Shown in pieces: positions 13,486 to 62,090 of a stretch of DNA of 64,000 nt (position 1 is its first letter; each line of letters starts with the position of its first letter). The DNA is from an uncultured bacterium. Its GTDB lineage: Bacteria > Fidelibacterota > Marinisomatia > Marinisomatales > UBA1611. Position numbers and translations under genes: made by a program. The notes below the pieces were generated by a model. That model saw only the letters and a list, made by a program, of their open reading frames with translations, was not told the origin of the DNA and made no database searches. The DNA is taken from the NCBI GenBank assembly GCA_964511215.1, contig CAZEER010000003.1:6457-70456 (forward strand). Reading direction: 5' to 3'.

Positions 13486-13487
13486 TG

Positions 13488-14801: not shown

Positions 14802-14811
14802 TATTTATTTT

Positions 14812-28875: not shown

Positions 28876-29634
28876 TTATATAATTGGCTTATGAAAGATT
28901 ACTTTTATTAACCAATTGTAAATGGTATTAGGAATTATACGTGCAATCCAGATTAAAATTTTGTAATACCATGGATATACATAGGTACTTGTGCCCTTAT
29001 TAATAATTTTAATGAACTTTTTTGCAGCGTTATTTGCCGATTTCATAGGCCATTTTCTTGCAGGTCCTTTCACCATAGGAGTGTCAATAAAGCCTGGGCA
29101 AATAGATATAGTTTTGATATTGTACCTTTGTAAGGTAGGACGCCAAGAATCAAAAATCATGCGTATCGCAATCTTAGAACTTGCATAACCCCCATGATAA
29201 GGAAGAGGCATAAAGCTTGCGACAGAGCTAATGCATACTAAAGAACCATTTTTCTGTTTTTTCATTATTGGAATAAAAGGCATCAATGTATTAGTAACAC
29301 CAAGAATATTAGTTGTTAGTATTTGATTAATATTTCTACTAGAGCCACTGTAGAGGTTATCATCACCTCCAATTCCAGCATTTGCGATAACACAATCTAT
29401 TCCTCCAGTGATTTCAAGAAAATTATTGGCAACTATTTTACATTTTTTTTGGTCACATACATCTAGCTCATAAACAATTGGTTTTCCACCAAGTTTTTCA
29501 CATTCATCAGCAATATTATTAAGTATTTCAACTCTTCGTGCAGAAATCCCAATGGTACATTTTTGTTTAGCATACATATAAGCAAGTGCTTTACCAATAC
29601 CTGAAGAGACACCTGTAATAAAAATATTTTTCAT
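28876..29634 (-). CDS. Short-chain dehydrogenase/reductase (SDR)
   Basis: TGVSSGIG (TGxxxGxG) and NAG motifs, with catalytic S...YxxxK (YASSKIA). Confidence 0.88.
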   Translation of the reverse strand: MKNIFITGVSSGIGKALAYMYAKQKCTIGISARRVEILNNIADECEKLGGKPIVYELDVCDQKKCKIVANNFLEITGGIDCVIANAGIGGDDNLYSGSSRNINQILTTNILGVTNTLMPFIPIMKKQKNGSLVCISSVASFMPLPYHGGYASSKIAIRMIFDSWRPTLQRYNIKTISICPGFIDTPMVKGPARKWPMKSANNAAKKFIKIINKGTSTYVYPWYYKILIWIARIIPNTIYNWLIKVIFHKPII

Positions 29635-30533
29635 AAATTAAACCTGTCACCTTCTCGAGCGACATTGAATCTGTTTGATCTAATTATTTTTGAAGCTGCA
29701 CCATTTTTCACTATTGCGGGGTTGGAGTGATTAAAATGAATAAAATGAATTTTATTTCTATTTTTTGTATTCAACATTTTTAATGTTTCTATTGTTTCAA
29801 TAATAAAAGGATGAGGTATTTCACTCATATCTCTATTGGGTAATTCATCTTGAGAATAAAAGGTTCCATCAAGAAGTGCAAAATCTGTATTTAAAACAAT
29901 TTGAAAAATGTCTTGGTCCCATTTTTCCCATTTATCTATATCAGGTATATAAATTAGTGATTTAGCATCGCTCATGATCCTATAGCCAACAGTCTCTGAA
30001 TATTCATCCCTATGGGGTACCAGAAAAGGTTCAATAAATAACTGATCACTAAGTTTTATTTCTCGATTATTTTGGATATGAGAGATCGTAATATTATTAA
30101 GAGAAATTAGTTGGTTCCATGGTCCATTATTTTTAAGAAATTTTCCCATTTTCGGCATGACATATACAGGGATATTTTTTGCCCCCATGACTTCCCGCCC
30201 AAGATGTAATAAACCTGTATAGTGTCCCATATGTGCGTGAGTTAAGAATATACCTGATAATTCACTATCATGGGATTTTTTTAGAATTCTTGTTTGGTAT
30301 GCAAAATCTGGAGTAGCATCAATGATCCAACTTTTGTTATTGCGTGGGTCAACAATTCCAATGCAAGAGACCTTTTCTTTTAGACCTGATTCCCAAAGAT
30401 TTTGGCAACAATGTTTTTCACATCCTGCGTGAGGAAAACCACCATCTTGAGCAATGCCAAGGACTACTATGTAAGGAGTCTCTCTTGAATATAAAAAACC
30501 AATAATCAGTAATATGAATAAAAAGAGTTTCAT
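29631..30533 (-). CDS. Secreted MBL-fold metallo-hydrolase, PqqB-like
   Basis: It has a signal peptide. VLGIAQDGGFPHAGCEKHCC resembles the PqqB N-terminus (LGSAAGGGFPQWNC.C). THAHMGH is the HxHxxH-type metal motif. It overlaps both neighbours by 4 nt. Confidence 0.72.
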   Translation of the reverse strand: MKLFLFILLIIGFLYSRETPYIVVLGIAQDGGFPHAGCEKHCCQNLWESGLKEKVSCIGIVDPRNNKSWIIDATPDFAYQTRILKKSHDSELSGIFLTHAHMGHYTGLLHLGREVMGAKNIPVYVMPKMGKFLKNNGPWNQLISLNNITISHIQNNREIKLSDQLFIEPFLVPHRDEYSETVGYRIMSDAKSLIYIPDIDKWEKWDQDIFQIVLNTDFALLDGTFYSQDELPNRDMSEIPHPFIIETIETLKMLNTKNRNKIHFIHFNHSNPAIVKNGAASKIIRSNRFNVAREGDRFNL

Positions 30534-31648
30534 AACTTTATTTGAATTTTTCTCCTATACATCCAATATAAAACAAACCAGAATCCTACTACATGTGTCA
30601 GCGCAAAAAGTAAAGATCCATTTAAGTCGTCTCCAGCTAGAGGAACAAAAATTGTTTTATAGAGATAATTGTGTGCACTGGTCATCTCTCCATCTAGGTT
30701 TAAATTTTTATAGAAACCAATCGTTTTTGCCCATAAGCCTGCCAAGATAAAAAGAAAGATTGAATTTGTACCAAATACTTCGAAAACCCAGAATGGTTTT
30801 TTCCAGAGTTTTATATCAATCAAAAATGTAAGTCCTGCTAAAATTATTGCTCCGATTCCTCCTGTGAATAAAACATAAGAACTAGTCCATAATGGTTTAT
30901 TTATAGGGAAGATAAATCCCCAGACGTATCCAGTAATAAGCAGTATAAAGCCAAAAATAGTCATTCGTTTTGCACAATCTGTATAATTTTTGGTTGTATG
31001 AAGCATCCCACCCATTAGATAACCAATAATCACAGTGCCGATTGATGGGATTGTACTTAGCAACCCTTCAGGATCAAAACGAATTCCAAATCCATTCCAA
31101 AGATGCTGCTTACCTAAAATGAAAATATCAATCTTTCGTGCCAGATTTGTTTCAAGGCTGTAAACCTGACCAGTACCACCTAACCACATTAATCCCCAAT
31201 AAAATAATAGAATCCCTGTTAATATTTTAGTCAATTGTCTAAAGTCATACCTAATGATTAGACATGCACTCAGACCATATGCAAGTGCAATACGCTGCAG
31301 TACACCCATTATTCTAAATGTTGACCAGTCCCAATCTTGGCGAATAAAAGGGTATGCTTGAAGCAAAATACCTGCAGTGAAAATTGAAAATGTTCTCCAG
31401 AATATATGTTTATAAAATTGTTTTGACGGGAAATAATGCCACTTAACAAAAGCAAATCTCATGGAAGACCCAACCAGAAAAAGGAAGAATGGAAAAACTA
31501 AATCAGTAAGAGTACAACCATTCCATTTGGCATGTAACAGAGGTGCATAGACGTGTCCCCAACTACCGGGATTATTTACAATAATCATCAAGGATATAGT
31601 AATGCCTCTAAAAATATCAATTGAATAAATTCGTCTTGGTTTTGACAT
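30530..31648 (-). CDS. DUF1624/DUF5009 polytopic membrane protein (heparan-alpha-glucosaminide N-acetyltransferase-like)
   Basis: The start is reassigned to MSKPRRIYSIDIFRGITI (ATG 31648, 2 nt after the SSS stop). R..S.D.FRG... is the family N-terminus and the protein has about 10 TM helices. The track extension to 31801 overlaps the upstream gene. Confidence 0.7.
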   Translation of the reverse strand: MSKPRRIYSIDIFRGITISLMIIVNNPGSWGHVYAPLLHAKWNGCTLTDLVFPFFLFLVGSSMRFAFVKWHYFPSKQFYKHIFWRTFSIFTAGILLQAYPFIRQDWDWSTFRIMGVLQRIALAYGLSACLIIRYDFRQLTKILTGILLFYWGLMWLGGTGQVYSLETNLARKIDIFILGKQHLWNGFGIRFDPEGLLSTIPSIGTVIIGYLMGGMLHTTKNYTDCAKRMTIFGFILLITGYVWGFIFPINKPLWTSSYVLFTGGIGAIILAGLTFLIDIKLWKKPFWVFEVFGTNSIFLFILAGLWAKTIGFYKNLNLDGEMTSAHNYLYKTIFVPLAGDDLNGSLLFALTHVVGFWFVLYWMYRRKIQIKL

Positions 31649-31650
31649 AT

Positions 31651-33483
31651 TTAGTGAAGTTTTGATAGGCTTCTGTTCCAGATTAAATAAGAACCTATTA
31701 ATGCAGCACCTAATAGCAAGACAGCATTTCCAAAGTTTTTGAAAATTAAGTTCCCTATTCCAAATGTGAATCCATATATCATCAATATACCGGCAATCCA
31801 TTGGAGCAAGAATCCATTACTTACTGGTTGGAGTGTATGTTTAAAGTCTTTTATAACAGGTTTCCACCATCCGCCAGGTTGAACTTTATCATAAAATAAT
31901 TGTAGTTGATCTAATGGCTCGGGCTTTGTCATAAGAGTAGCAGTTATCCATGTTATAACAGCAAGCGGTACAATAATCATTAGCTTATGATGCACCTGTA
32001 GACTGATATTAAATAATACTGGAGCAGATCCAAAAAGTGAATATTCACTCCCATCTGCAATTGTTTGAAAATATGCAATAATTTCTAATGTGCTTGTTAT
32101 GATTATTGATGTACCAAGTGCTGTAATCTCACTCCACGCATTTATACGCCACCAAAACCAACGTAGGATTAGTACTAGGCCTATTCCTGCACCCATTGAA
32201 AAAATAAATTCCCATGCTTTTGAGATACTCTGCATTTTTAATGCAGTAAATGCTGAAAGGATCATAAGAATCACCGTAATGATTTTTCCTACAATAACAT
32301 AATGGTTCTCAGATTCATTAGGTTTAAAAAATCTTTTGTATACATCATTTATAAGGTAAGACGCCCCCCAATTTAAATGAGTATCAATCGTAGACATGAA
32401 GGCTGCAAGAAAAGAAACAATAAGAATTCCTTTAAGACCTGGGCCAAGGAGCGCATTCATGACAAGCGGATACCCTGCTTTCACTCCAAGTTCTGAATAT
32501 GATTCAGGTATTAAAGGGAACATCGTGATTGAGACAACTGCTACGATGATCCATGGCCAAACTCGCAGGGCATAATGTGCAAGATTATACCAAAGAGTGG
32601 CCAATAATGCATGATGCTCATTTTTTGCCGATGACATTCTTTGAATAATATATCCTCCACCATCTGTTCCATGATGACTCCACCACATAATTGTAATAAA
32701 AATTAGAAATTTTGAGAAAGGAGACTCCCAGAAAATTGATGTAGAAATATTTGAATCTGGTATAGGCGGAATAAATTTTAAAGTGTTATCATGTACAATA
32801 CCTGTATCTTGGAGCATCGATAATTTGCTTAGTAATGAGTCCATTCCACCAATATGATTTAGTGCAATTATTGCAAGTGCAATAGAACCAAACATTGCTA
32901 TAAAGAATTGGACAAGGTCAGTTATAACTACACCCCAGAATCCAGATAAAATAGCATATACGAGAGCAATTACAACGCAGATCCATACTGCATTCCATTT
33001 ATCCATATTAAGCATAACGGATACAACTGAAGCCATTGCATTGATCACCCAGCCCATCACAATGAAATTATAAAGAATAGAGAAGTATCCTGCCTTAAAT
33101 GCTCTGAGAAAGGCAGCTGGTTTACCACTATATCTTATTTCTAATAATTCATTGTCCGTCAATACTTCTGCCCGGCGCCATAATCGAGAAAATAGAAAAA
33201 CCCCCAATAATGAACCCATGAGCAAATTCCACCAAAACCAATTCTGCCAAATACCTGATCCGCGGACAAATTCAGTTATGGCAAGAGGAGTATCGGCAGC
33301 GAATGTTGTTGCAACCATAGATGTACCAACAATCCACCATGGAAGTGAACGACCTGAAAGAAAATATTCTTCTGTATTTGAGGCAGCCCTTTTAGAGAAA
33401 TATATCCCAACTCCTAATGAAAAAATTATGTAGGAGATAATTATTGTCCAGTCAATCCAATGAAGTGATACAGATTCAATCAT
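31651..33483 (-). CDS. Sodium:solute symporter (SSS) family transporter
   Basis: 610 aa. LHWIDWTIIISY...EEYFLSGRSLPWW...VATTFAADTPL is the typical SSS N-terminus, with 13 or more TM helices. Confidence 0.88.
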   Translation of the reverse strand: MIESVSLHWIDWTIIISYIIFSLGVGIYFSKRAASNTEEYFLSGRSLPWWIVGTSMVATTFAADTPLAITEFVRGSGIWQNWFWWNLLMGSLLGVFLFSRLWRRAEVLTDNELLEIRYSGKPAAFLRAFKAGYFSILYNFIVMGWVINAMASVVSVMLNMDKWNAVWICVVIALVYAILSGFWGVVITDLVQFFIAMFGSIALAIIALNHIGGMDSLLSKLSMLQDTGIVHDNTLKFIPPIPDSNISTSIFWESPFSKFLIFITIMWWSHHGTDGGGYIIQRMSSAKNEHHALLATLWYNLAHYALRVWPWIIVAVVSITMFPLIPESYSELGVKAGYPLVMNALLGPGLKGILIVSFLAAFMSTIDTHLNWGASYLINDVYKRFFKPNESENHYVIVGKIITVILMILSAFTALKMQSISKAWEFIFSMGAGIGLVLILRWFWWRINAWSEITALGTSIIITSTLEIIAYFQTIADGSEYSLFGSAPVLFNISLQVHHKLMIIVPLAVITWITATLMTKPEPLDQLQLFYDKVQPGGWWKPVIKDFKHTLQPVSNGFLLQWIAGILMIYGFTFGIGNLIFKNFGNAVLLLGAALIGSYLIWNRSLSKLH

Positions 33484-34732
33484 AAAGTTTTTTTAGAGTT
33501 GTAGATAAAAAATAATGTGATAAAATTTTTTTAGTAGATTTATTTTGTAACGCCATTACCAATGCCCCAATCTGGCAGAGACCTACTCCATGCCCCCAGC
33601 CTGCTCCTTTTAACGTTATTGAATCTAAATTATTATTTGTATCCAAATTTGGAATAGTTATAAATGCAGAACTATATAAAAATTTATTATGTAGAACTCT
33701 TCTGATTTCATATTCACTCACAATGATTGCTTTATAAGGTTTAGTATTTTTAATTCCTTCAATCTTTAATTTTATTATTCTTCCAGAAACCCCACGTTTT
33801 AAGGCTTTTATTGATAAAATTGAATCAAATGCAATTCCTAATTTTTTATAGATCATTTCTTTTAATTCAATTATAGAATAAGTGAATTCCCAACGAAAAT
33901 AGTCACCCTTTTTATCTACGACTCCAATATATTTTTTCAAATTGTTATTACTAATGTATTTATTACTGCAATAACATTCAGGATAAGTTTTCATCCAATG
34001 TTCAAGGTCATTAATTTTATTAAAATCTGGTAAATCAATTTTTTCACTATCAGGAATTCCACGCAAATAGGGTTTAGGTTTTTCATCCCAAACGTTTTCA
34101 TTGTTTTCTGATATACCACCACATGATTTTGAATATCGAGTATCACAAATTTTATTATTAAAAATTAAGAATTGGCCACGAGTCATTTCTACTGAAGACT
34201 TAGACGCTTGTGTTAAGTTCTTTATGCCTTGATAACGTTGACAGCAATCATCATTGCATGCATCAATACCAAGAGCAGCATGTTTTTGCTCTGCTGCAGC
34301 TACAATCCATGATCTTGCTGCGATTGTTTGTGCTTTTAGTAATGCGGGTGGACATGCATTGCTCATTTCTGATATAGCGACACACATTAAATACATTTCT
34401 AATTTAATTTCATTCACTACAAATAGAGAATTACTTCTATTTGAGATAAATAAATTACCAGGAACTTGTATAGTAATATTTTTTTCCCAATGAAATCCAC
34501 GTCCAGTAGGAACCGGATGAATCAGAAAATATAAATTATGTGTTGATTGTTTTAGTTTAAAATTTTTTAAGTGCTTATTATTAACGATAAGGTGTGTATC
34601 TGCTGCAGTTATAGAATATTTTTTCTTTTTATTCTGTGTACTTATCTCTAGTGAATTTTGTTTATCACTGGGAAGGACTATGCCAATTGAGATTGTTGGC
34701 TCTTTCTTTGGAATCTCGCCACTTGTTAACAT
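33476..34732 (-). CDS. SpoIID/LytB domain protein (peptidoglycan-cleaving / amidase enhancer family)
   Basis: ISEMSNACPPALLKAQTIAARSW matches the SpoIID core (E....P.EALKAQAVAARTY), followed by DDCCQRYQG and GHGVGLCQIGA. Confidence 0.8.
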   Translation of the reverse strand: MLTSGEIPKKEPTISIGIVLPSDKQNSLEISTQNKKKKYSITAADTHLIVNNKHLKNFKLKQSTHNLYFLIHPVPTGRGFHWEKNITIQVPGNLFISNRSNSLFVVNEIKLEMYLMCVAISEMSNACPPALLKAQTIAARSWIVAAAEQKHAALGIDACNDDCCQRYQGIKNLTQASKSSVEMTRGQFLIFNNKICDTRYSKSCGGISENNENVWDEKPKPYLRGIPDSEKIDLPDFNKINDLEHWMKTYPECYCSNKYISNNNLKKYIGVVDKKGDYFRWEFTYSIIELKEMIYKKLGIAFDSILSIKALKRGVSGRIIKLKIEGIKNTKPYKAIIVSEYEIRRVLHNKFLYSSAFITIPNLDTNNNLDSITLKGAGWGHGVGLCQIGALVMALQNKSTKKILSHYFLSTTLKKLYD

Positions 34733-35664
34733 AATACTTTCCAGGCAGCACCCAATGCTGCCGTCCTTCTATCAGAAGAGAAATCAATAATTAAATCTGT
34801 ACAATTCATAAACATTTTCCCTAATCTGTTATTGTCATTTAATAGAAAATGGCCAAGTCTCTGGCCTATAACTATTTTTTCAATTGATTCATTATTTTTT
34901 TGAAAAAACTTAATTCGGTCATCTACTAGGAATGAAAATGCTTCTAATACATTTTCAACAATATCAAAAAATTGATTTGATCTAGATAGTTCAGACAGCG
35001 TTCTATATTTAGTGTTGTAAGTTAGATTGTACTTTTTGATTATACCTGATGGAGAGAGCCATGATTCTACAGAGTCACCAGATGGAAGAGTTAATTCCCA
35101 CGAACGTTTAGGACTAGAATTATGGTTAAAGTCAATCATTTCACCATTAAGAACTAATCCATCTGCTATTCCTGTTCCGCCACCAATATAGATACCATTA
35201 TTAATATTTTTCATTTTTCCTATAGTTGACTTCCACTCTCCCATAACACAGCAATCTGAATCATTATAAATAGTATTGACAGCATCTAGGCGATTTACCA
35301 TATTGATAATTCTTGGACCATTTGCTAATACTACGATATCATTTTTATTTTTTATTCCTGGAAAACATAATCCAGTTTGATAACCTTGACACTGAGATAA
35401 AGCTTGTTGAATTGTTTCTATAATGATATTCCCTTGAATGATCTCAGAATTTTTGATTGATATTTTTCCAATTTTATATTCATTTCGTTGTATATCTAAT
35501 GCTACTGGTAAAAAGTTTTTATCCCAGCTTGGATGATTAGAGTAAAGAAATTCTTGATAAATTTTACCTGGAGAGATGTTATTGGATTCAGGATCAAAAA
35601 TTGCTGATTGGATAAGTACTTTTGTGGCACCGCAGTCAACACCCACTAAAAGATCATTATTCAT
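34726..35664 (-). CDS. BadF/BadG/BcrA/BcrD-type ATPase, probable N-acetylglucosamine (amino-sugar) kinase
   Basis: The ASKHA phosphate-1 motif VGVDCGATKV lies at the N-terminus, with GGGTGIADG later. It sits between SpoIID and NagZ with overlapping stops and starts. Confidence 0.7.
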   Translation of the reverse strand: MNNDLLVGVDCGATKVLIQSAIFDPESNNISPGKIYQEFLYSNHPSWDKNFLPVALDIQRNEYKIGKISIKNSEIIQGNIIIETIQQALSQCQGYQTGLCFPGIKNKNDIVVLANGPRIINMVNRLDAVNTIYNDSDCCVMGEWKSTIGKMKNINNGIYIGGGTGIADGLVLNGEMIDFNHNSSPKRSWELTLPSGDSVESWLSPSGIIKKYNLTYNTKYRTLSELSRSNQFFDIVENVLEAFSFLVDDRIKFFQKNNESIEKIVIGQRLGHFLLNDNNRLGKMFMNCTDLIIDFSSDRRTAALGAAWKVLC

Positions 35665-36715: not shown

Positions 36716-36900
36716 ATATTGAAACTAATTTGAAAAATTCATATGTCTAATAAAAAGCGTATAGATTATAAAATTTTATAAACAATTTTACGTATCTTTT
36801 TATTTATTATTTTTTATTATTTAGTTGTATAAGTTTAGTTGAACAGATATATTTTTACTTAAGGTTGTTGATAATTATCCTAAAATATTATTATTGAATA

Positions 36901-39807: not shown

Positions 39808-39813
39808 TTTCTT

Positions 39814-41175: not shown

Positions 41176-41176
41176 A

Positions 41177-42475: not shown

Positions 42476-42692
42476 AAATTTAGTTTATTTGTATTATTTA
42501 CATGATAGTCTGTATAGCTAGACCCAATCCATATTGCTAATATAATAAGTTCAAAAATATTGATTGAAGAAAATTATGGTTTTAGTATAATTAAAGCAAA
42601 AATATATAAAAAACGTATTTTGCGATACTCTGGAAATATAGAATGAATTTTCTAAAATAATTATTAATTAATAACAAAATAGGAGTTTAATT

Positions 42693-44264
42693 ATTCATTG
42701 GATTGATAATTTAATTATTTTCCTTTTTTTATCAGGTCTCATTGGGTTTGGATGGGTTCAAGGACTGCATAATAAGACTACATCAGATTATTTTCTAGGA
42801 AATAAAAAACTTCCATGGGTTACAGTCATGTTATCAATTGTAGCCACGGAAACATCAGTACTAACTTTTATCAGTATTCCAGGTATTGCATATCGTGGGA
42901 ATTGGATTTTTATCCAGCTTGCCTTTGGCTATATCTTTGGAAGAATTTTGGTGAGCATTTTTCTTCTCCCAAAATATTTCTCGTCCGGGATTGTGTCCAT
43001 TTATGAGATATTAGGTGAAAAATTTGGTAAGAATATGCAGAAAATTGCATCAGGTGTATTCCTGACAACTCGCATTCTTGCAGATGGTATTAGATTTTTA
43101 GCGACAGCAGTTATAATTCAAGTTATTACTGGTTGGTCTTTGCCGGTTTCAGTATTACTTATTGGTATTATTACGTTAATATATTCAGCACAGGGTGGAA
43201 TAAAGACTATTATATGGGTGGATAGTATTCAATTTGTATTATACCTTGCTGGGGGGATCATCTCTATCTTATATATATTATATAACTCGGATGAAACTTT
43301 TCATAATATTTTTTTCAGTTTAAGTGATGCTGGAAAGATGAGGATTTTTGGCCTAAATGGTCATCCTCTTACAGAACCATATTTTCTTATAAGTGCTTTT
43401 GTTGGAGGTACGTTCTTATCTTTATCATCGCATGGTGCGGATTATATGATGGTGCAACGTGTACTTACGACAAAAGAACTAAGATCAGGTCAAAAAGCGA
43501 TGATAGGTAGTGGAATTTTTGTAATGATTCAGTTTGGGATTTTTCTTTTAGCAGGTTCACTAATATTCTATTATTTTGATGGTACCCCATTACAAAAAGA
43601 TAGGGAATTCACTTCGTTTATTGTGAACCATTTACCGATAGGATTGAGAGGGTTTTTGCTTGCAGGAATATTGTCAGCTGCCATGTCTACACTAAGTTCA
43701 TCTATTAATTCTCTTTCATCTTCAACCATAATTGACTGGTTTGGAGCACATTCTTCATTAAATCTATCAAGATTGGTTAGCCTGTTTTGGTCGATAATTT
43801 TGATTAGTATCGCACTCCTTTTTAATGAAAGTGATTCAGCCATAGTTATTGTAGGTCTGCAAATTGCATCATTTACCTATGGAGGTCTACTTGGTTTATT
43901 TTTATTGAGTAAGAGTAACAGAAAATTCCATTCAAGTAGTTTAATTATTGGATTAATTTCAAGTTTTTTAATTGTATTTTACTTGAAGCATCTGGGCCTA
44001 GCCTGGACTTGGTTTATAATGATTTCAGTCATGACGAATGTTTCAATGGCATTTTTAGCTGAAGCATTTATTAAACCAAGTGACACAAAGATGATTGCGT
44101 TACTGGTAATCATAATCAGTATTTCTTTACTTTATTCTTCTTTTTTAAAACCTATTATACAATCAACTCAAAGATTTTTTGATAATCATAATTCTAACAG
44201 ATTAATACAATCAGTCGCATATGATTTTTTGAATGGGAAAGAGAAAGAAGACAGATCTAATTAA
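42693..44264 (+). CDS. Sodium:solute symporter (second SSS paralogue); proposed non-canonical ATT start
   Basis: The track starts at 42828 (MLSIVATETS), but the frame is open from 42675. It encodes (I)HWIDNLIIFLFLSGLIGFGWVQGLHNKTTSDYFLGNKKLPWVTV, the obligatory SSS TM1 and DYFLGxRxxPW block. No ATG, GTG or TTG occurs in that stretch. AGGAG at 42681-42685 lies 7 nt before the ATT at 42693. Confidence 0.75.
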   Translation: MHWIDNLIIFLFLSGLIGFGWVQGLHNKTTSDYFLGNKKLPWVTVMLSIVATETSVLTFISIPGIAYRGNWIFIQLAFGYIFGRILVSIFLLPKYFSSGIVSIYEILGEKFGKNMQKIASGVFLTTRILADGIRFLATAVIIQVITGWSLPVSVLLIGIITLIYSAQGGIKTIIWVDSIQFVLYLAGGIISILYILYNSDETFHNIFFSLSDAGKMRIFGLNGHPLTEPYFLISAFVGGTFLSLSSHGADYMMVQRVLTTKELRSGQKAMIGSGIFVMIQFGIFLLAGSLIFYYFDGTPLQKDREFTSFIVNHLPIGLRGFLLAGILSAAMSTLSSSINSLSSSTIIDWFGAHSSLNLSRLVSLFWSIILISIALLFNESDSAIVIVGLQIASFTYGGLLGLFLLSKSNRKFHSSSLIIGLISSFLIVFYLKHLGLAWTWFIMISVMTNVSMAFLAEAFIKPSDTKMIALLVIIISISLLYSSFLKPIIQSTQRFFDNHNSNRLIQSVAYDFLNGKEKEDRSN

Positions 44265-44283
44265 AACTCCTTGGATTCTAGGG

Positions 44284-45429
44284 TTAAATTATCCTTTTTA
44301 CGAAAAGGAATGTCTCCAGCCTTTTTGGGGCAAAATTAACTAAATTTTTATCTAAAGAATTTTCTTTTACCATGCCCCCTTGATGGATAAACTCTTTTCC
44401 ACCAGTACTTATACCAACATGTGTTACTCTATTATTTTCCCCAAAAAAAAGTAAATCCCCAGGGCGAATATTTTCCCAATTTTTATCAGGGGTTATATCA
44501 ATTCCTTCTAATGCCTGTTGTCTAGCATCACGTGGCAATTGTATACCATTTGATTTGAATACTATTTGGGTAAACCCTGAGCAATCATTCCCTTTAGAAG
44601 AATTGCCACCCCATAAATAAGGCACTCCGGTCATTTTATAAGCGTCCCTAAGGATACTATCTGGGACTGCTAATTTCTCCGGTCTACTAATTATAGGTTT
44701 TAAAATATTTTTTGTAACATAACCAGATCTACCATCGGGGAGCAAAATAGATACCCAATCTTTATTTTTAATATTACCAATTAATATATTATTAAGTACA
44801 GCATCAGTAATAGGTTGGCTTGTATTATTAGGTAATGAAAATATAGTAGTTTGTAATGTGTTAATAGTGTAGTTAGCATTTTTTACCCAATTATTTTTTA
44901 AAACTGAGTCACATATAAACAATCCAGTTTCATTAATCCACCCCACATAATTATAGTGTGTTTGAGATAAATACCAACCAGTTTTGTAACGAAGCAACCT
45001 AATAATATTCCCCATTGTAGTCTGATCTACCATTTGACTAGAGTGACTTGGCTTTTCTCGCAAAGGTGTAACGCTTACATTAACAATTGCATAATTATTA
45101 TTGCCTAGTGTAGGGTCAGGTAGCATCATAAAATTATTAGTGAATTTTTTTGACCTAAACAGTGAGTCACTCATTTCCATCAATTTTGTAAAAGCAATAG
45201 CATTAGTGGTGGCACCTTCTATGACCCATTGATTATCTATTTTTTTTAGGCTTGGTGAAAAGACAGAGAGTGATTTGTCAGTAATATATTGTTTACTTAT
45301 TTCTGAGACCCTTCTATCAAAATCAGAAATAATTTTCTTTTTATCAGAACAATCAGATACTAAAAATAACAGGAATAAGTAAAACAAAAAGCTGAAGATT
45401 TTTTTCATTAATTTTTTTCTTCTAATCAT
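44284..45429 (-). CDS. NlpC/P60 (C40) cell-wall endopeptidase with N-terminal SH3b-like domains
   Basis: YLWGGNSSKGNDCSGFTQIVF (catalytic Cys) followed by HVGIS (His). It has a lipoprotein-like N-terminus; MKKIFSFLFYLFLLFLVSDC is a possible alternative start at 45408. Confidence 0.85.
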   Translation of the reverse strand: MIRRKKLMKKIFSFLFYLFLLFLVSDCSDKKKIISDFDRRVSEISKQYITDKSLSVFSPSLKKIDNQWVIEGATTNAIAFTKLMEMSDSLFRSKKFTNNFMMLPDPTLGNNNYAIVNVSVTPLREKPSHSSQMVDQTTMGNIIRLLRYKTGWYLSQTHYNYVGWINETGLFICDSVLKNNWVKNANYTINTLQTTIFSLPNNTSQPITDAVLNNILIGNIKNKDWVSILLPDGRSGYVTKNILKPIISRPEKLAVPDSILRDAYKMTGVPYLWGGNSSKGNDCSGFTQIVFKSNGIQLPRDARQQALEGIDITPDKNWENIRPGDLLFFGENNRVTHVGISTGGKEFIHQGGMVKENSLDKNLVNFAPKRLETFLFVKRII

Positions 45430-46858
45430 GAATAATATTTTGGACTATTTCATTTTGTATATGCTGATAAGGCTCAGAATCTCCAACAAAACCATTAATT
45501 AAGATAGAGAAAGCAACAGGTCCATATTTTGGTGAAAAAATATATCCTGATAAATTATTAACACCAGATAAACCGCCGGTTTTTGCTCTGATCATTGCTC
45601 CTTCTTTTACCAGCCTATTCTCAAGAGTTCCATTTTCCCATCCTCCTCCTGGTAGGACAGAAATAAAATCATCTCTATGTTTACTGCTATACATCTTAAT
45701 TAATAATGAGGTCAAGTGATCGGCACTTGTGAGATTATATCTTGATAGTCCTGAGCCATCTGCTAATCGTATCATGGATGTATCTATTCCAATAGAATCA
45801 GATAAGAATGATTTAACACGGTTTATACCATTCTGCCAATTCCCTTGACTTTGATTAGTAATACCTATTGTTTTAATAAATAGCTCTGCTTTTAGATTGT
45901 CACTCTCGTTCATTAAATCTGCAGTTGAAAAAATGATGGGATTTGAATTATGATACGCAAGAGTGTCGAAGTCTTTTTTTAATGTACCCTTAACCAAATT
46001 TTTTACTTTAACACCATAGTTGTTCAGAGACTCTCTGAAGATCGTGCCTGTGAATAAAGTAGGGTCATAGATATTCCGTCTGAGTGTATCACATTTTTTT
46101 TTATAAAATATTTCACCACTTATTTTAAAATGATTTGTTCTTGCGACCCAATCACGATCTATTTTTAGTTTTTCTAGTTCAATATTATTTGTAACAGTAA
46201 GGGAGTGGTTAGATAATGATATATATTCAGTATATGGGAAATAATTAATATTAGCAGGTTTTCCTGGAATATCTGGGGAAATATAAAAATCTATGCAATT
46301 ATCATTAACAGTTAGTGCTCCAACTGGAGCAGCATACCACCATGCTCCTTCATCCCACATCCATCCCTTACCAAAATATAATGAGTCCATAGAAGTTGCA
46401 TCTAAAAATAATGTGTCAACTGTTTTTAAAAATGTGGATGTTATCTTTGCAAGAGAATCTAATTGATCCACAGTGAGATCAGGGTCACCATGTCCCTGTA
46501 GTATTATATTGTTTTTATCTCGTAAGATATTTGTTGTAAACATATAATCCTTTCCTAAATAATCTAAAGCAGCTGCGCTGGTATACAACTTATTGTTACT
46601 CGCAGGGATTAATAACTTTTTACTATTCAATTCATATAATATTTTTCCGTTAGTCAATGAAATTATTTTTACACCTATTAGAAAATCTTGGTTAGAATCA
46701 ATGATTATTTGATTCAATTTTTTTTTTAAAGAAGAGACTCCTTGATTTGTTAATAAAGAGGGATGTGGAGTACAGGATAAAAGATAAAAAGTTGTTAAAA
46801 AACAAATAGTGTTAAATCTCATGAGAACCATCTTGTACTTTATTAAGAAATGACTCAA
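45422..46858 (-). CDS. dacB: D-alanyl-D-alanine carboxypeptidase/endopeptidase, PBP4 (S13) family
   Basis: PASNNKL (SxxK), DGSGLSRYN (SxN) and KTGGLSG (KTG) are present. The true start may be MRFNTICFLTTFYLLSC (46822), which gives a lipobox and a smaller overlap with the upstream gene. Confidence 0.85.
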   Translation of the reverse strand: MSHFLIKYKMVLMRFNTICFLTTFYLLSCTPHPSLLTNQGVSSLKKKLNQIIIDSNQDFLIGVKIISLTNGKILYELNSKKLLIPASNNKLYTSAAALDYLGKDYMFTTNILRDKNNIILQGHGDPDLTVDQLDSLAKITSTFLKTVDTLFLDATSMDSLYFGKGWMWDEGAWWYAAPVGALTVNDNCIDFYISPDIPGKPANINYFPYTEYISLSNHSLTVTNNIELEKLKIDRDWVARTNHFKISGEIFYKKKCDTLRRNIYDPTLFTGTIFRESLNNYGVKVKNLVKGTLKKDFDTLAYHNSNPIIFSTADLMNESDNLKAELFIKTIGITNQSQGNWQNGINRVKSFLSDSIGIDTSMIRLADGSGLSRYNLTSADHLTSLLIKMYSSKHRDDFISVLPGGGWENGTLENRLVKEGAMIRAKTGGLSGVNNLSGYIFSPKYGPVAFSILINGFVGDSEPYQHIQNEIVQNIIHD

Positions 46859-47480
46859 GTAATAACACGCTTAGAGATTGTGTCTTACTAAATTGTTTTT
46901 CACTTACCCCAATTCTTTGGGCAAATGTTTTTGAAGCTTCAATATGTGGTTGAAAACCCCAAATTGGAAGATGCTTGTGTACTATTGCCTCAATTTTCAC
47001 CATCGAACTTGTTGCAAATACATCAAAGTTCTCAGGACATTTAGTGACACCTTCTTGGTGAGAATAAATTAAATAATCCTCCTGCGTATTATTTAGCCGG
47101 TTATTTTCTAAAATTTTTATTCTTCTAATTCCTCTTTTTTTAGTAGTATTCCATAGATAATCGACTGTTCCTCCAAAAAGGTGTGCCAGAAATTGATGAC
47201 CAAAACAGATCCCAAGAATTGGGATTCTATTTTTAATGCCTATTTCTATTATCTCCTTGATATTATTCAGCCAATGAAAGGAATCGTGGACCGAAGCAGC
47301 ACTACCCATAAGAATTATACCGCAAGCATTGTTAATATGCTTTTTCATGGAATTCGGCGAATGTATTTTGGGTAAATGATAGGTAGTATTTATATTGCAG
47401 CGCAGTGAAATTTCATTGTAAGATTCTATTTCAGGAGTCTTTATTGCAGGGTCAATGACCATTAAGTTTTGAAAACTCAT
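46812..47480 (-). CDS. Class I glutamine amidotransferase-like protein (C26-type Cys-His-Glu hydrolase fold)
   Basis: GICFGHQ nucleophile elbow and the GFQPHIE His-Glu pair. At 222 aa it is stand-alone, with no synthase domain. Confidence 0.72.
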   Translation of the reverse strand: MSFQNLMVIDPAIKTPEIESYNEISLRCNINTTYHLPKIHSPNSMKKHINNACGIILMGSAASVHDSFHWLNNIKEIIEIGIKNRIPILGICFGHQFLAHLFGGTVDYLWNTTKKRGIRRIKILENNRLNNTQEDYLIYSHQEGVTKCPENFDVFATSSMVKIEAIVHKHLPIWGFQPHIEASKTFAQRIGVSEKQFSKTQSLSVLLLESFLNKVQDGSHEI

Positions 47481-47612
47481 TAACTATTATAGTAATAGTT
47501 TTTTAAAAATGACAATTAGAAATATTTTTTTGTTCAAAGTATCCTTTATGAATAAAATTGTGGAATTTGCATCTGATTGAATGTGATATTATATATAAAT
47601 TAGGGTATTTAA

Positions 47613-48458
47613 TTGATCAAATACTTCGTGCATTTTAAAATTTTTGCTATTCTATTATTTGCTTTTGGTTCTTGTGCTGACCGTGGACCTTATGATTGGA
47701 TTGAGTCTCTCCCAGCTCCTTGGACCTTGTCAAATTATCAACTAGATTCATATCTACCACAATTCCATAAAAAGTACCCTGATTATTATGATCGGTTAAT
47801 AGCTCTTAACCTATGGCGTGTAGGTACTCCTTATGGATTATTTTGTCTTGGTGAAGAGCAGGGTATAGATCTCGACCCAATCATTAGAATTGATAGTTCA
47901 GATTGTACGGTACATGTTTTAACGACTATTGCGTTGGCAGAAAGTCAAACATGGCAAGGTGCAAGAGATGCGATGATTGACATCCACTATAAGCCGGATC
48001 TCAATGGTATTAAAAAACCTACTTATAAATCTCGCTGGCATTTTACATCTGATCGTTTATTAAATAATCCCCGCACAGTTGATATAACCTCGATTATTGC
48101 ATCACCAGAAGACGTTGATACAATCAATATTATATTAAATAAAAAAATCGATGGTTCTCAGTTTTTGAAACTTGGTTGGACATCAAAACTATCAACTTAC
48201 TTTATCCCTATCCAAAATATAGGGGAGCATTTATTATCACAACTCCCTGTTATTTGTGGGATTGCTTTTGTTAAAAAAAACTATTTTAAAAATGGTATTG
48301 TTATTGCTCATGAAGGATATGTTATTAATAGAAGGAATCTAATCCATGCTTCATCAGTAGAAAACAAGACAGTCAATGTTAACTTATTGTCATATATTGG
48401 GAATGTTAGTAAACCTCGTTTTGATGGAGTGATGTTTTACGAGATCAGGAAAATTTGA
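47613..48458 (+). CDS. DUF1460 (AmiA-like NlpC/P60-fold N-acetylmuramoyl-L-alanine amidase) lipoprotein
   Basis: TTG start, lipobox FGSC, and DSSDCTVHVLTTIALAE (a candidate catalytic Cys context, as in DUF1460). The family assignment is from memory of the DUF1460 pattern, so confidence is moderate. Confidence 0.6.
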   Translation: MIKYFVHFKIFAILLFAFGSCADRGPYDWIESLPAPWTLSNYQLDSYLPQFHKKYPDYYDRLIALNLWRVGTPYGLFCLGEEQGIDLDPIIRIDSSDCTVHVLTTIALAESQTWQGARDAMIDIHYKPDLNGIKKPTYKSRWHFTSDRLLNNPRTVDITSIIASPEDVDTINIILNKKIDGSQFLKLGWTSKLSTYFIPIQNIGEHLLSQLPVICGIAFVKKNYFKNGIVIAHEGYVINRRNLIHASSVENKTVNVNLLSYIGNVSKPRFDGVMFYEIRKI

Positions 48459-48461
48459 AAA

Positions 48462-50804
48462 ATGGTTAATAAAAATCTATCCCAAGTAGAATCTTATTTC
48501 ACAGATAATAATAAGATATTAAAACAACTTACAAATATTCCATATCTAGTTGTTGATAATTTTCCAGATTTAGGTTTAATTACATCTCTTCGATTTCTAG
48601 AATGGATCTTAGAAAATCCCCATGGTGTTATTAGTCTTCCGACTGGTAAAACTCCAGAATATTTTATTAAATGGACTCACTATTTTCTAAATAATTGGGA
48701 TGTTGATAATGTAAAATCCATTCGACTGAAATATGGTCTAGACTGTAACAAAAGACCAGACTTATCAAAATTACAATTTGTCCAAATTGATGAGTTTTAT
48801 CCTCTTAACCCTGCGCAGCATAACAGTTTTTATAATTATGTAAGCAAATATTATCTTGAAGGGTTTGGGATTTCCCCTAATAAATCATTATTAATTAATT
48901 CAGATTCTATAAAACTTTATAAAGATAAACATTGGAGTTCAATTTTCCCAGATGGAATCATCGATCTGAATTTGCGTTACAGGGATGCCAAAACTGACGC
49001 TGAAAAAATGCAAAAAGAATCGATCTATATTATAGATCAATGGTGTAATCAATATGAAGAAAAAATAAGGAATATGGGAGGGATTGGGTTTTTTCTAGGC
49101 GGTATTGGTCCAGATGGGCACATTGCTTTTAATATCAGAGGTTCAGATCATAATTCAACAACTCGGTTGATGAAAACGAATTTTGAGACACAGGCCGCAG
49201 CTGCCGTGGATTTGGGAGGGATTGAAATTAGTAAAAATCGTTTGGTTATAACTATTGGGCTGGGAACAATAACTTATAATGAAAATGCTACGGTTATTAT
49301 TATTGCTGCAGGAGAAGCTAAATCAGCTATAGTCAAGGAATCACTTGAATCTCAACAAGATATAAAATATCCTGCAACTGTTCTTCAAAAACTTGAAAAT
49401 AGCAGATTTTATATAACTATAGGTGCATCAAAAATGCTTAAGGATAGTCAAGATCATTATTGGAAAAAAAATCCTTGGAATTCGGAAAAGAAACAGAGAG
49501 CATTATTAAAGCTTTCTAAGAGAAAGAACATTTTTGGTAAAAAACTTCAGTTGCATGATCTACAAAAAGATGAAATTTTTAAAAATATGAATGGGATAAA
49601 TGAAAAAACAGTTGATGAAATTATCCAAAATATTGATAAAAAAGTCCAACAAGGAATCAAGATTGAAAAAGATGAAACATATTATCACACGGGTCCCCAT
49701 CATGATGATATTATGCTTGGGATGATGCCTCACATTATACATTTGATTAGGGAACCAAGTAATAGGCATATTTTTGCAAATATGACTTCTGGATTTACAT
49801 CGGTAACTAATAGTTTTTTAAATAAAGTGATTAAAACTACTTTGGATTTTCTTGAAAAAGGGAAAATTCAGATGATAGACTATCTAGATTTTTTTTCAGA
49901 TGGTTATAAGTTTAAATGGGATAAGGACGTATACCATTACCTTGACAGAATTGCCGATAATGATTTAAGTGGCCAATTGAGAGGTTTATCACATAGGGTT
50001 GTACGCTCAATAGTAAAAATTTATAATGTCCAAAATAAAAACCAATTAATCGAGCAATTAACAAGAGTGGTTAATGAATTAAATGATTATTACGATGGAG
50101 AAAAAAATTCACCAGCAATCCAACGGTTAAAAGGAATGATCCGAGAATTTGAAGAAGAGTTAGTCTGGGCAAACTATGGTGTACGTGTAAAAGATGTACA
50201 TCATCTAAGGCTTGGATTTTATAAGGGTGATATTTTTACAGAACAGCCTCAGCAGAAGAGAGATGTAACACCCATACTAGAACAATTAAGAGAATTTAAA
50301 CCAACTGTTATTTCACTTGCACTTGATCCTGAAGGAAGTGGCCCTGATACACATTACAAGGTTTTGCAGGCTATTGCAGAAGCAGTTCGAAGATGGAACA
50401 AAGATTCTGATTTATCAAATTTAAGAATTTGGGGCTATAGAAACGTTTGGTATAGGTTTGATATGTCAGAGGCAGATTTAATTATTCCTGTGACACTTAA
50501 TTCTATGGCAATTATGAATTCTACTTTTATGAATTGTTATTTGAGTCAAAAAGATGCTTCATTCCCCAGCTATGAGTATGATGGCCCTTTTTCTAAACTC
50601 ACTCAAAAAATATGGGTTGAACAGCACAGAGATTTACAACTGATTTTTGGCCGAGATTATTGGTATCAAAATAAAAATCCACATTTAAGAGCAGTGCATG
50701 GAGCATTATATTTAAAACAATTTGGTGTAGAAGATTTTTTGAAGTTAGCTAGGCGAATTGAGGATTCCACAGAAGGATCAAATATTCTAAAAGAATCATT
50801 TTAA
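48462..50804 (+). CDS. nagB: Long-form glucosamine-6-phosphate deaminase fused to a PIG-L/LmbE-like deacetylase domain
   Basis: The N-terminal half carries LPTGKTPEYF, QIDEFYPL and GIGPDGHIAFN (NagB/6PGL fold). The C-terminal half carries YYHTGPHHDDIMLG, resembling the PIG-L (A/P)HPDDxxxG zinc motif. Confidence 0.82.
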   Translation: MVNKNLSQVESYFTDNNKILKQLTNIPYLVVDNFPDLGLITSLRFLEWILENPHGVISLPTGKTPEYFIKWTHYFLNNWDVDNVKSIRLKYGLDCNKRPDLSKLQFVQIDEFYPLNPAQHNSFYNYVSKYYLEGFGISPNKSLLINSDSIKLYKDKHWSSIFPDGIIDLNLRYRDAKTDAEKMQKESIYIIDQWCNQYEEKIRNMGGIGFFLGGIGPDGHIAFNIRGSDHNSTTRLMKTNFETQAAAAVDLGGIEISKNRLVITIGLGTITYNENATVIIIAAGEAKSAIVKESLESQQDIKYPATVLQKLENSRFYITIGASKMLKDSQDHYWKKNPWNSEKKQRALLKLSKRKNIFGKKLQLHDLQKDEIFKNMNGINEKTVDEIIQNIDKKVQQGIKIEKDETYYHTGPHHDDIMLGMMPHIIHLIREPSNRHIFANMTSGFTSVTNSFLNKVIKTTLDFLEKGKIQMIDYLDFFSDGYKFKWDKDVYHYLDRIADNDLSGQLRGLSHRVVRSIVKIYNVQNKNQLIEQLTRVVNELNDYYDGEKNSPAIQRLKGMIREFEEELVWANYGVRVKDVHHLRLGFYKGDIFTEQPQQKRDVTPILEQLREFKPTVISLALDPEGSGPDTHYKVLQAIAEAVRRWNKDSDLSNLRIWGYRNVWYRFDMSEADLIIPVTLNSMAIMNSTFMNCYLSQKDASFPSYEYDGPFSKLTQKIWVEQHRDLQLIFGRDYWYQNKNPHLRAVHGALYLKQFGVEDFLKLARRIEDSTEGSNILKESF

Positions 50805-55276: not shown

Positions 55277-55429
55277 ATGAAAAATATATTTAAAAAACAA
55301 AATCAAGAAAAAGTATCTGAGGCTGTAATTCGTGCCGTTTCCAGATTAAATAAATATGAAGATCAGAAAGTATCTCATTCAATAGTATGGGATGGTAAAT
55401 CGATTAATTATATATCGCTCACCTCATGA
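55277..55429 (+). CDS. Unlisted 50-aa ORF overlapping the lexA start (ATGA)
   Basis: My translation is MKNIFKKQNQEKVSEAVIRAVSRLNKYEDQKVSHSIVWDGKSINYISLTS. The stop TGA overlaps the lexA ATG. No family was recognised, and it could be non-coding leader. Confidence 0.3.
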   Translation: MKNIFKKQNQEKVSEAVIRAVSRLNKYEDQKVSHSIVWDGKSINYISLTS

Positions 55430-56046: not shown

Positions 56047-56057
56047 GTAAATCTTTT

Positions 56058-62024: not shown

Positions 62025-62046
62025 TTAGTATAATTTTATTACAAAA

Positions 62047-62073: not shown

Positions 62074-62090
62074 ATTTAACTAATTATAAT

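Follow-up and report, generated by a model that had tools for sequence, protein, structure and literature searches.

In Bacillus subtilis, the exo-lytic enzymes NagZ, AmiE and NamZ jointly digest intact peptidoglycan (PG), working sequentially from its non-reducing end (PMC8054146), and the corresponding genes form a murQ-murR-murP-amiE-nagZ-namZ operon. Here, we analysed a 64,000-nucleotide stretch (hereafter the window) of contig CAZEER010000003.1, from the genome assembly GCA_964511215.1 of an uncultured bacterium of the order Marinisomatales, in which a 21-kb cluster brings together relatives of these enzymes with peptidases, membrane proteins and cytoplasmic sugar-processing enzymes. Judging from gene content and gene order, the cluster is real, functionally coherent and kept across uncultured marine Marinimicrobia (SAR406), and we consider it probable that it takes apart PG fragments, most likely those of other bacteria, and catabolises the products. 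With the B. subtilis operon, the window shares a two-domain NagZ/YbbD of glycoside hydrolase (GH) family 3 and a GH171 NamZ, along with a putative counterpart of the amidase. It differs, however, in that a single lipoprotein combines NagZ with the amidase-like domain, and in that MurQ, MurR and MurP, the latter belonging to the phosphotransferase system (PTS), are missing, with sodium:solute symporters (SSS) and a NagX-like protein in the place of PTS uptake. Moreover, the host is Gram-negative, possesses a type IX secretion system (T9SS), and carries additional peptide-processing enzymes and a NagB-LmbE fusion.

Several other described systems resemble the locus in part. The namZ1 cluster of Tannerella forsythia (Tanf_08345-08385, encoding LytB, AmpG, NamZ1, MurT, MurK and MurQ) serves the salvage of exogenous PG, and the two clusters have in common an FCB-group host, a periplasmic NamZ, a SpoIID-like LytB, a non-PTS transporter and a kinase. 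Yet the window lacks AmpG and MurQ, its kinase has a ROK fold whereas T. forsythia MurK is of the BadF type, and it adds a fusion of GH3 and an S12-type beta-lactamase fold (GH3::S12), a GH18 with a T9SS tag, AmiA-like and YkfC-like enzymes, PBP4, two SSS transporters and NagB-LmbE. In Bacteroides, Xu et al. 2015 proposed a periplasmic recycling route in which the DUF1460 amidase AmiA, with activity reported for the B. uniformis enzyme, acts first, on anhydro-muropeptides, and supplies the free stem peptides that YkfC cleaves (PMC4600125); both families are present in the window as lipoproteins, but that route is a proposed pathway and was not described as one 16-gene locus. Proteobacterial chitin/GlcNAc (nag) clusters of the Shewanella type likewise place GH18 and hexosaminidases beside a kinase for N-acetylhexosamines, a deaminase and a NagX-like transmembrane acetyltransferase, while the window lacks NagA and NagP, has a divergent NagB fusion and is dominated by PG-specific enzymes. 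Finally, polysaccharide-utilisation loci (PULs) of Bacteroidota share with it the combination of exported or lipoprotein glycoside hydrolases, targeted by T9SS or lipoprotein signals, with genes for uptake and cytoplasmic catabolism, but unlike them the window has neither a SusC/SusD pair nor a regulator. Thus, the logic and several of the families are shared with known salvage systems and the composition differs, its distinctive features being the NagZ-AmiE-like fusion, the T9SS-tagged GH18, the NagX-like protein, the ROK kinase, NagB-LmbE, the SSS transporters and the absence of both MurQ and AmpG.

Fidelibacter multiformis IA91, the one member of the phylum in culture, draws on exogenous muropeptides for its wall, carbon and energy (PMC11652737), so that cell-wall scavenging by Marinimicrobia is not a new idea. 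At the level of the organisms, IA91 is an anaerobe of the subsurface that belongs to class AB16, has 45.6% GC and uses a MurQ producing D-lactate, in contrast to the window organism, which is aerobic and pelagic, has ~33% GC and carries no MurQ in the locus. The literature searched, which did not extend to the primary paper on IA91, holds no description of a PG utilization locus or its architecture in SAR406/Marinisomatota, and papers on bead and stable-isotope-probing experiments from the Black Sea contain no evidence of Marinimicrobia responding specifically to PG.

Organization and conservation of the locus

Families were assigned by Pfam and NCBIfam profile searches of window open reading frames (ORFs) of at least 120 aa, and localisation was predicted by a script scoring hydropathy and lipoboxes. 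Every ORF named in the initial annotation was found where it had been placed, and 16 of its 17 family calls held in Pfam, NCBIfam and structure searches, the kinase being the exception (Table 1). The script and a Por_Secre_tail match also recovered the signal peptides, lipoboxes and single T9SS tag reported there: lipobox-like motifs occur in the GH3::S12 fusion (FISC), PBP4 (LLSC), the AmiA-like amidase (FGSC) and the NlpC/P60 protein (VSDC), and N-terminal signal-like segments in NamZ, GH18 and a protein of the metallo-beta-lactamase (MBL) fold, whereas the script detected no export signal in NagZ, the kinase, SpoIID, the class-I glutamine amidotransferase (GATase) or NagB-LmbE. Families and synteny support the proposal of a PG-processing cluster that spans exported, membrane and cytoplasmic steps.

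Table 1. Genes of the cluster and its left border, with window coordinates and the principal supporting matches
Product	Coordinates	Strand	Length (aa)	Supporting evidence
Short-chain dehydrogenase (SDR); last gene of minus-strand operon	28876..29634	-	252	PF00106 E 5.4e-44
Exported MBL-fold PqqB-like protein	29631..30533	-	300	PF12706 E 1.2e-23
NagX/HGSNAT-like polytopic membrane protein	30530..31645	-	371	NCBIfam NagX NF046061 E 2e-39
SSS1, sodium:solute symporter family	31651..33483	-	610	PF00474 E 1.5e-43
SpoIID/LytB-domain protein, lytic-transglycosylase family	33476..34732	-	418	TIGR02669 E 9.5e-50, PF08486 E 7.3e-20
ROK-fold sugar kinase; 8-nt overlap with nagZ	34726..35664	-	312	AlphaFold2 model pLDDT 90.9 and Foldseek
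NagZ-like single-domain GH3 beta-N-acetylglucosaminidase, cytoplasmic	35657..36715	-	352	PF00933 E 5.7e-54
GH3::S12 lipoprotein fusion	36901..39807	+	968	PF00933 E 3.3e-84, PF00144 E 3.2e-54
Secreted GH18 with T9SS C-terminal sorting domain	39814..41175	+	453	PF00704 E 1.5e-66, Por_Secre_tail E 1.8e-9
NamZ (GH171) exo-beta-N-acetylmuramidase, exported	41177..42475	-	432	NamZ_N PF07075 E 4.5e-79, NamZ_C PF20732 E 3.8e-38
SSS2, sodium:solute symporter; ATT start	42693..44264	+	523	PF00474 E 6.4e-22, TIGR00813 E 7.8e-42
YkfC/DPP-VI-like SH3b-NlpC/P60 lipoprotein	44284..45429	-	381	PF00877, SH3_3, SH3_16
PBP4-type (S13) DD-carboxypeptidase/endopeptidase lipoprotein	45422..46858	-		PF02113 E 2.4e-82, TIGR00666 E 1.1e-70, above cutoff
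Stand-alone class-I GATase/C26-like protein, cytoplasmic	46812..47480	-	222	PF00117 E 3.2e-20, PF07722 E 5.7e-9
AmiA-like (DUF1460) NlpC/P60-related MurNAc-L-Ala amidase lipoprotein, predicted	47613..48458	+	281	PF07313 E 6.7e-19
NagB-LmbE fusion, cytoplasmic	48462..50804	+	780	PRK02122 E 7.8e-58, below cutoff

To follow the cluster in relatives, an alignment of NamZ was run against one genome per GTDB species, which yielded 80 loci (numbered below with the prefix L), and the window proteins were compared with them by tblastn. A metagenome-assembled genome of Neomarinimicrobiota (L006) contains the entire cluster in identical order, with a NamZ 72% identical in the scan and 71% by tblastn. Eight more genomes (L012, L013, L014, L019, L020, L025, L026 and L028), in which NamZ is 45-54% identical, keep a core consisting of GH18-NamZ-(PBP4)-(MBL)-SSS2-AmiA-GH3::S12-NagZ-kinase-(SpoIID-SSS1). 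The genes are thus not scattered in relatives, a point on which the initial annotation had made its proposal depend, and as nine or more further species-level genomes have them in a cluster, their grouping is not due to chance. The cluster occupies ~29.6-50.8 kb of the window. Its left border is more likely at 29631 than at 28876, since relatives that keep the MBL gene have no SDR match near the cluster, which makes the membership of the SDR doubtful.

Relatives also add genes to this core. Between PBP4 and the YkfC-like gene, L006 has three that are missing from the window (4644-7335 of that locus), encoding the LD-carboxypeptidase LdcA (S66), a Gate-domain membrane protein and a fusion of Gate and Peptidase_M15 (D-Ala-D-Ala dipeptidase). 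L026 adds LdcA, an amino-acid permease and AnmK; the ORFs filling the corresponding gap in L028 match those of L026 in size and order. An ORF of ~535 aa lies beside the MBL gene in L012, L013, L016 and L020, the one in L012 being a GH20 hexosaminidase. Other Marinimicrobia (L002/3, L086, L087 and L088) possess NamZ loci resembling PULs, in which a SusC-like TonB-dependent receptor is followed by a ~700-aa protein with no Pfam match, Amidase_3 or Amidase_2 proteins show weak matches to the T9SS tail, and SSS and Beta-lactamase2 domains co-occur, being fused in L086 (382-2898). Upstream of NamZ in L086 (6568-9996), L088 (6568-9996) and L002/L003 (6577-9996) lies a 1140-aa T9SS-tagged GHL10 protein that matches E. 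coli DigH, a hydrolase specific for denuded glycan, at E 5e-21. MurQ adjoins NamZ in one Marinimicrobia lineage only (L004/5), and outside the phylum the neighbourhood of NamZ includes at most a gene for a beta-lactamase fold. To judge by these gene orders, a modular system runs through the phylum, with the window cluster as one of its variants.

Exo-lytic enzymes and GH18

NamZ scores 265 bits for PF07075 (cutoff 26.9) and 132 bits for PF20732 (cutoff 25), and among solved structures it matches 4k05 (E 5.7e-70) and 4jja (E 2.3e-57), which are NamZ-like proteins of B. fragilis. B. subtilis NamZ (BsNamZ) has the catalytic Glu92 and a conserved Arg279; their putative counterparts in the window protein are residue 92, a Glu in a PEHG motif that never varies among 26 homologues, and R282, which hardly varies. 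The identical NamZ protein is encoded on a 46-kb marine metagenome scaffold (ENA ERZ23498662), and its homologues are labelled Candidatus Marinimicrobia or Neomarinimicrobiota.

The GH3 half of the GH3::S12 lipoprotein aligns with both domains of the B. subtilis YbbD/NagZ structure (3bmx/4gyj, E 2.9e-63, residues 32-562) and is, on this basis, probably a YbbD-type exo-beta-N-acetylglucosaminidase. Its C-terminal ~380 residues have the S12 beta-lactamase fold with the motifs SISK (SxxK), YSD (YxD) and HTG, and the best NCBIfam match of this domain is PBP4B (NF002968, E 3.1e-55), whose gene in E. coli (yfeW) adjoins murQP. Stand-alone homologues of the S12 domain with 39-43% identity occur near NamZ in Acidobacteriota and Deltaproteobacteria, directly upstream of it in three of four loci. 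We infer that this half acts as an AmiE-like exo-amidase on the bond between N-acetylmuramic acid (MurNAc) and L-Ala, and the match to YbbD, the beta-lactamase fold that we take AmiE to have and the presence of NamZ together suggest that the window encodes a trio like that of B. subtilis, with its first two enzymes fused. The fusion was also considered as a novelty of the locus, which we rejected, as more than 140 of the top 150 representatives at 50% identity have the length of the fusion (~880-1030 aa).

The secreted GH18 retains an intact catalytic DxxDxDxE motif (DGIDIDWE) and could be either a chitinase or a PG endo-N-acetylglucosaminidase, as far as its sequence goes. A GH18 gene adjoins NamZ in 24 of 89 NamZ loci, all of them Marinimicrobia-like and none from other phyla, and takes two forms. 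One, of ~810 aa, is encoded upstream of NamZ and in the same direction, and in L004 and L087 its stop codon abuts or overlaps the start of NamZ; the other, of ~450 aa, lies downstream of NamZ in convergent orientation, as in the window. If a GH18 enzyme held N-acetylglucosamine (GlcNAc) in its -1 subsite, cleavage of GlcNAc-beta-1,4-MurNAc would be conceivable and would make MurNAc non-reducing ends for NamZ; hevamine, for example, cuts this linkage.

Peptide-processing enzymes

With regard to the peptide moiety, the initial annotation had assumed enzymes of catabolism or recycling rather than of housekeeping, which is borne out by the close match of the NlpC/P60 lipoprotein to the YkfC enzymes of Bacteroides ovatus (BoYkfC, 3npf, E 8.4e-45, spanning residues 109-375) and B. 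thetaiotaomicron (BtYkfC, 3pvq, E 2e-41). It keeps the catalytic Cys (DCSG), the Asp of LPRD and the Tyr of SH3b1 (nYvGW aligned to ddYtGW), the numbering of this Tyr/Asp pair as Y80 and D221 being deduced. Bacteroides YkfC enzymes accept no substrates other than free stem peptides that begin with L-Ala, a restriction imposed by the Tyr/Asp pair (PMC4600125). Our protein is accordingly predicted, from these conserved residues, to be a gamma-D-Glu-diamino-acid amidase acting on free stem peptides. Its presumed upstream partner, the AmiA-like protein, scores 68.6 bits against PF07313 (cutoff 27), and its gene adjoins SSS2 or NagB-LmbE in L006, L010, L012-14, L019, L020 and L025. PBP4, which likely starts at 46822 and would thus have 466 aa, is encoded at or near NamZ in L014, L016, L020, L025, L026 and L028. 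The presence of the YkfC-like and AmiA-like partners together with PBP4 argues against peptidases of mere housekeeping in wall synthesis. The GATase1/C26-like gene is kept in the cluster only in L006.

Membrane proteins

The gene for the NagX-like protein probably starts at 31645, as placed by the gene caller, and not at 31801. Its product has no Pfam match, contains at least six transmembrane (TM) segments by the hydropathy script, and aligns with human HGSNAT (8vkj; phmmer E 9.4e-24) such that the catalytic His297 corresponds to a His in LLHAKWNGCTLTDLVFPFF; the NagX/HGSNAT matches and this aligned residue uphold the HGSNAT-like assignment made earlier. With an NCBIfam NagX score of 135.7 against an equivalog cutoff of 480, it is a member of the family rather than a NagX equivalog. 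The function of NagX was described by Price et al., who also noted that NagX is distantly related to T. forsythia MurT (TfMurT) and that its genes occur in chitin operons (PMC9007349). Two functions can be predicted for the window protein from its sequence, that of a transmembrane acetyl-CoA:glucosaminide N-acetyltransferase and that of a MurNAc transporter resembling MurT, the conserved catalytic His favouring the former.

Of the two symporters, SSS1 has at least 11 TM segments and orthologues with 81% identity that adjoin SpoIID in L006 and L019, and its substrate may be an amino sugar or a muropeptide. SSS2, with orthologues of 62-73% identity in L002/3, L006, L012-14, L020, L025, L086 and L088, shows the most consistent linkage to NamZ and AmiA of any transporter in the phylum. 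Its reading frame holds no ATG, GTG or TTG from the in-frame TAA at 42672 up to an ATG at 42828, and the 45 codons upstream of 42828 encode the conserved N-terminal helix of SSS2 (IHWIDNLIIF...). Alignment with orthologues, in which the codon equivalent to 42693 is ATG or TTG, leads us to place the start at an ATT there; this ATT is shared by the window clade, L086, L006 and L002/3, is preceded by AGGAG 7 nt upstream, and may be a device for translational down-tuning.

Cytoplasmic enzymes and genes of uncertain role

The NagZ-like enzyme, the first gene of the minus-strand operon, matches the beta-N-acetylhexosaminidase profile NF003740 (E 4.5e-51, below cutoff). The kinase encoded next to it had been taken for a BadF-type enzyme. 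We reject this assignment, and MurK with it: the protein has no Pfam match at E <= 1e-3 (ROK reaches E 0.18, and BadF/BcrAD PF01869 is absent), a sequence search of the PDB returned three weak sugar-kinase matches only, and its AlphaFold2 model matches ROK N-acetylhexosamine kinases. The top PDB structures in Foldseek are 3r8e, NanK (2yhw and 6q27) and NagK (4db3 and 7p9l), at E 1e-13 to 7e-16, and all 50 structural matches listed are ROK-family proteins or glucokinases, with no MurK among them. Its VGVDCGATK is a motif of the GxDxGxTK type. The modelled fold suggests that the kinase, whose family has hardly any members other than Marinimicrobia-like metagenome proteins, acts as a GlcNAc and/or MurNAc 6-kinase.

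The call of a NagB-PIG-L fusion stands at the level of fold, as Foldseek matched both halves of the NagB-LmbE model (pLDDT 76.6). The N-terminal half matches NagB in the PDB by sequence (3hn6, E 1.3e-16) and in Foldseek (E 9e-8), and the C-terminal half matches diacetylchitobiose deacetylase (8bgo, E 2.7e-4), teicoplanin deacetylase and MshB in Foldseek and the PIG-L profile at E 0.0066. The fusion holds the Asp of IDEF, the His of GPDGHIAFN and an HTGPHHDD motif, is 65-75% conserved across Marinimicrobia, and adjoins AmiA or SSS2 in L006, L010 and L025.

Three genes of the locus, namely those for a SpoIID/LytB protein with no signal, the PqqB-like MBL protein, which is exported, and the GATase1 that stands alone, are of uncertain role. 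SpoIID/LytB, encoded 6.4 kb from NamZ, reaches 170 bits for TIGR02669 (cutoff 83.3), and its position between the kinase and SSS1 is conserved in L006 and L019. The MBL protein matches the PqqB profile TIGR02108 (E 2.8e-32, below cutoff) and the PqqB structure 4z7r (E 1.8e-8). Its gene, which usually adjoins PBP4 and the ~535-aa ORF, is kept in the cluster at 51-60% identity in L012-14, L016, L020 and L025 (L012 12584-13429, L013 2587-3483, L020 12632-13522 and L016 10136-10981), and it is a conserved cluster member with no known role in PG metabolism.

Flanking regions and regulatory elements

The window has ~33% GC, and both flanks of the cluster are unrelated to it, the left one carrying genes for cytochrome oxidase and bc-type respiration, a MATE transporter and BioY, and the right one genes for cytochrome c and KdsD, a LexA/ImuB/DnaE2 cassette and a GH43. 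A respiratory island at 1415-17850, with cox1, cox3, Rieske and cytochrome b, a 999-aa multi-haem cytochrome c, CtaA, CtaB, SCO1 and DUF420, indicates an aerobic lifestyle. The minus-strand gene at 17870-22450 encodes a 1526-aa protein with N-terminal AMP-binding (acyl-CoA synthetase-like) and C-terminal GNAT acetyltransferase domains, between which ~800 residues carry no annotation. On the other side, LexA, an ImuB-like protein of the IMS family and a DnaE2-like 1002-aa Pol III alpha subunit (55426-60238, plus strand) form a cassette of the SOS mutagenesis type, and at 60258-63881 (minus strand) a GH43 beta-xylosidase/arabinanase-like enzyme adjoins a protein of 596 aa that carries a T9SS sorting tail, a pair that may represent a second small glycan-degrading unit.

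An Rfam scan of the window returned no match, hence no riboswitch or RNA regulator is indicated there. A scan for sigma-70 promoters and terminators found fewer promoter-like sites than in shuffled sequences and is uninformative because the DNA is AT-rich.

Discussion

In the route that we regard as probable, the T9SS-secreted GH18 would nick glycan strands, or chitin-like material, outside the cell. In the periplasm or at the cell surface, the YbbD-like half of GH3::S12 would remove the terminal GlcNAc and its AmiE-like half strip the stem peptide from the MurNAc so exposed, which NamZ would then remove, a cycle demonstrated by biochemistry for NagZ, AmiE and NamZ of B. subtilis. In parallel, the AmiA-like amidase may free peptides from anhydro-muropeptides, PBP4 may cut D-Ala-D-Ala termini and DD-cross-links, and the YkfC-like amidase may split free stem peptides at the gamma-D-Glu-diamino acid bond. 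The NagX-like protein would either re-acetylate de-N-acetylated glucosamine residues at the expense of cytoplasmic acetyl-CoA or take up MurNAc as TfMurT does, and SSS1 and SSS2 would import sugars or small fragments. In the cytoplasm, NagZ could cleave imported GlcNAc-(anh)MurNAc, the ROK kinase phosphorylate the N-acetylhexosamine, and NagB-LmbE deacetylate and deaminate the phosphorylated sugar to fructose-6-P. Families, folds, export signals and synteny are observations, on which the substrate specificities, transport functions and co-expression implied by this scheme are built.

Several observations weigh against this interpretation. A tblastn search with Marinimicrobia MurQ found no homologue in the window, where the only SIS protein is KdsD, and NagA, AmpG or another major facilitator superfamily transporter, AnmK, LdcA and a TonB-dependent receptor or other outer-membrane importer were absent among the scanned ORFs. 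With no MurQ or outer-membrane import in the locus, its description in the initial annotation as a near-complete route was overstated, and these steps must be encoded elsewhere in the genome or proceed differently. The NagB-like domain falls below curated cutoffs, lacks the equivalent of Glu148 and is modelled with low confidence at 208-261, and SpoIID/LytB has no signal peptide or TM segment by our script, though its family acts on the sacculus. The presumed likeness of the S12 domain to AmiE draws on the fold that we assume for the latter. Furthermore, no operator shared by the divergent regions 36716-36900, 42476-42692 and 47481-47612 and their L006 counterparts was found, there being no common k-mer of 10 or more and, at k = 8-9, none with at least two G/C. 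The closest solved relatives of GH18 are chitinases (best PDB match ChiW, 5gzu, E 2.5e-58), so that its role in PG degradation is putative, and the identical gene set might be used to recycle the wall of the cell itself. The scanned window ORFs likewise include no regulator, PTS gene (MurP) or SusC/SusD pair. The latter absence had been presented as a peculiarity of a locus built around SSS transporters; the absence itself holds, but it is not unusual, given that Bacteroidetes MurNAc salvage clusters also lack SusC/D beside NamZ, and TonB-dependent, SusC-like receptors are encoded in further NamZ loci of SAR406.

Cytoplasmic NagZ, PBP4 and SpoIID/LytB are typical wall-maintenance families, LdcA and AnmK in the clusters of relatives are classic recycling enzymes, and the window has no outer-membrane importer, all of which would fit housekeeping recycling of the cell's own murein with no foraging, as by AmpG/NagZ/AmpD/LdcA in E. 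coli. We consider this unlikely as the sole function, in view of the T9SS-secreted GH18 in the cluster, the linkage of NamZ in related SAR406 to T9SS-tagged DigH-like and amidase proteins and SusC-like receptors, and the retention of the catabolic NagB-LmbE beside AmiA. In addition, the exo-lytic NagZ, AmiE and NamZ of B. subtilis act on released or exogenous PG, and the cultured member of the phylum depends on exogenous muropeptides. Recycling and foraging are not mutually exclusive. The earlier suggestion that the locus degrades exogenous debris stands as plausible, backed by the secreted GH18, the T9SS and SusC proteins of other NamZ loci and the cultured relative.

The GH18 evidence fits the use of chitin or mixed amino sugars just as well, and such use would also account for NagX, whose family has genes in chitin operons, for the kinase, whose fold matches NagK and NanK, and for the NagB-LmbE fusion, whose LmbE half resembles diacetylchitobiose deacetylase; GH20 in relatives' clusters points the same way. 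However, that the locus is mainly devoted to such substrates, with the PG enzymes as co-located passengers, is very improbable when six PG-specific families (NamZ, AmiA-like, YkfC-like, PBP4, SpoIID/LytB and S12) are conserved across species, when LdcA, AnmK and D-Ala-D-Ala dipeptidase occur in relatives, when GH18 is tied to NamZ in 24 SAR406-type loci, and when neither a chitin-binding module nor a lytic polysaccharide monooxygenase was found among the scanned window ORFs. Equally small, in our estimation, is the chance that the cluster mainly supplies wall building blocks to a bacterium lacking de novo synthesis of MurNAc or PG precursors. Reliance on exogenous muropeptides is reported as ancestral in the phylum (PMC11652737, citing Katayama 2024), and the combination of NamZ, LytB and kinase resembles the T. 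forsythia namZ1 cluster; yet the window organism is aerobic, with cox genes present, the NagB-LmbE fusion points to catabolism, and window scans found no AmgK/MurU or MurQ, while 64 kb is too small a stretch to judge murA/murB. Foraging on PG with catabolism of the products therefore seems to us the best reading of the locus.

A more specific scenario, which we put forward as possible though doubtful, is that pelagic SAR406 possess a phylum-specific modular system of PG foraging, in which the two T9SS GH18 types, locked to NamZ only here, were recruited as PG-glycan endo-N-acetylglucosaminidases that create the ends on which NamZ acts, and in which MurNAc is processed with no MurQ in the cluster, possibly with help from the exported MBL protein that resembles PqqB, from SpoIID, which carries no signal, or from the NagX-like acetyltransferase. 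If true, SAR406 would be specialised in consuming the cell-wall detritus of bacteria in the dark ocean.

Marine dissolved organic nitrogen includes, as is generally recognised, remnants of PG and D-amino acids, and SAR406 ranks among the most abundant uncultured lineages of mesopelagic waters and oxygen-minimum zones. The NamZ-adjacent GH18, GH3::S12, the NagX-like protein, NagB-LmbE and the exported PqqB-like protein are candidate enzymes for biochemistry. The locus extends to aerobic pelagic lineages the 2024 finding that an anaerobic cultured relative depends on exogenous muropeptides, and it provides a concrete gene set for asking whether SAR406 lives partly on the walls of other bacteria.

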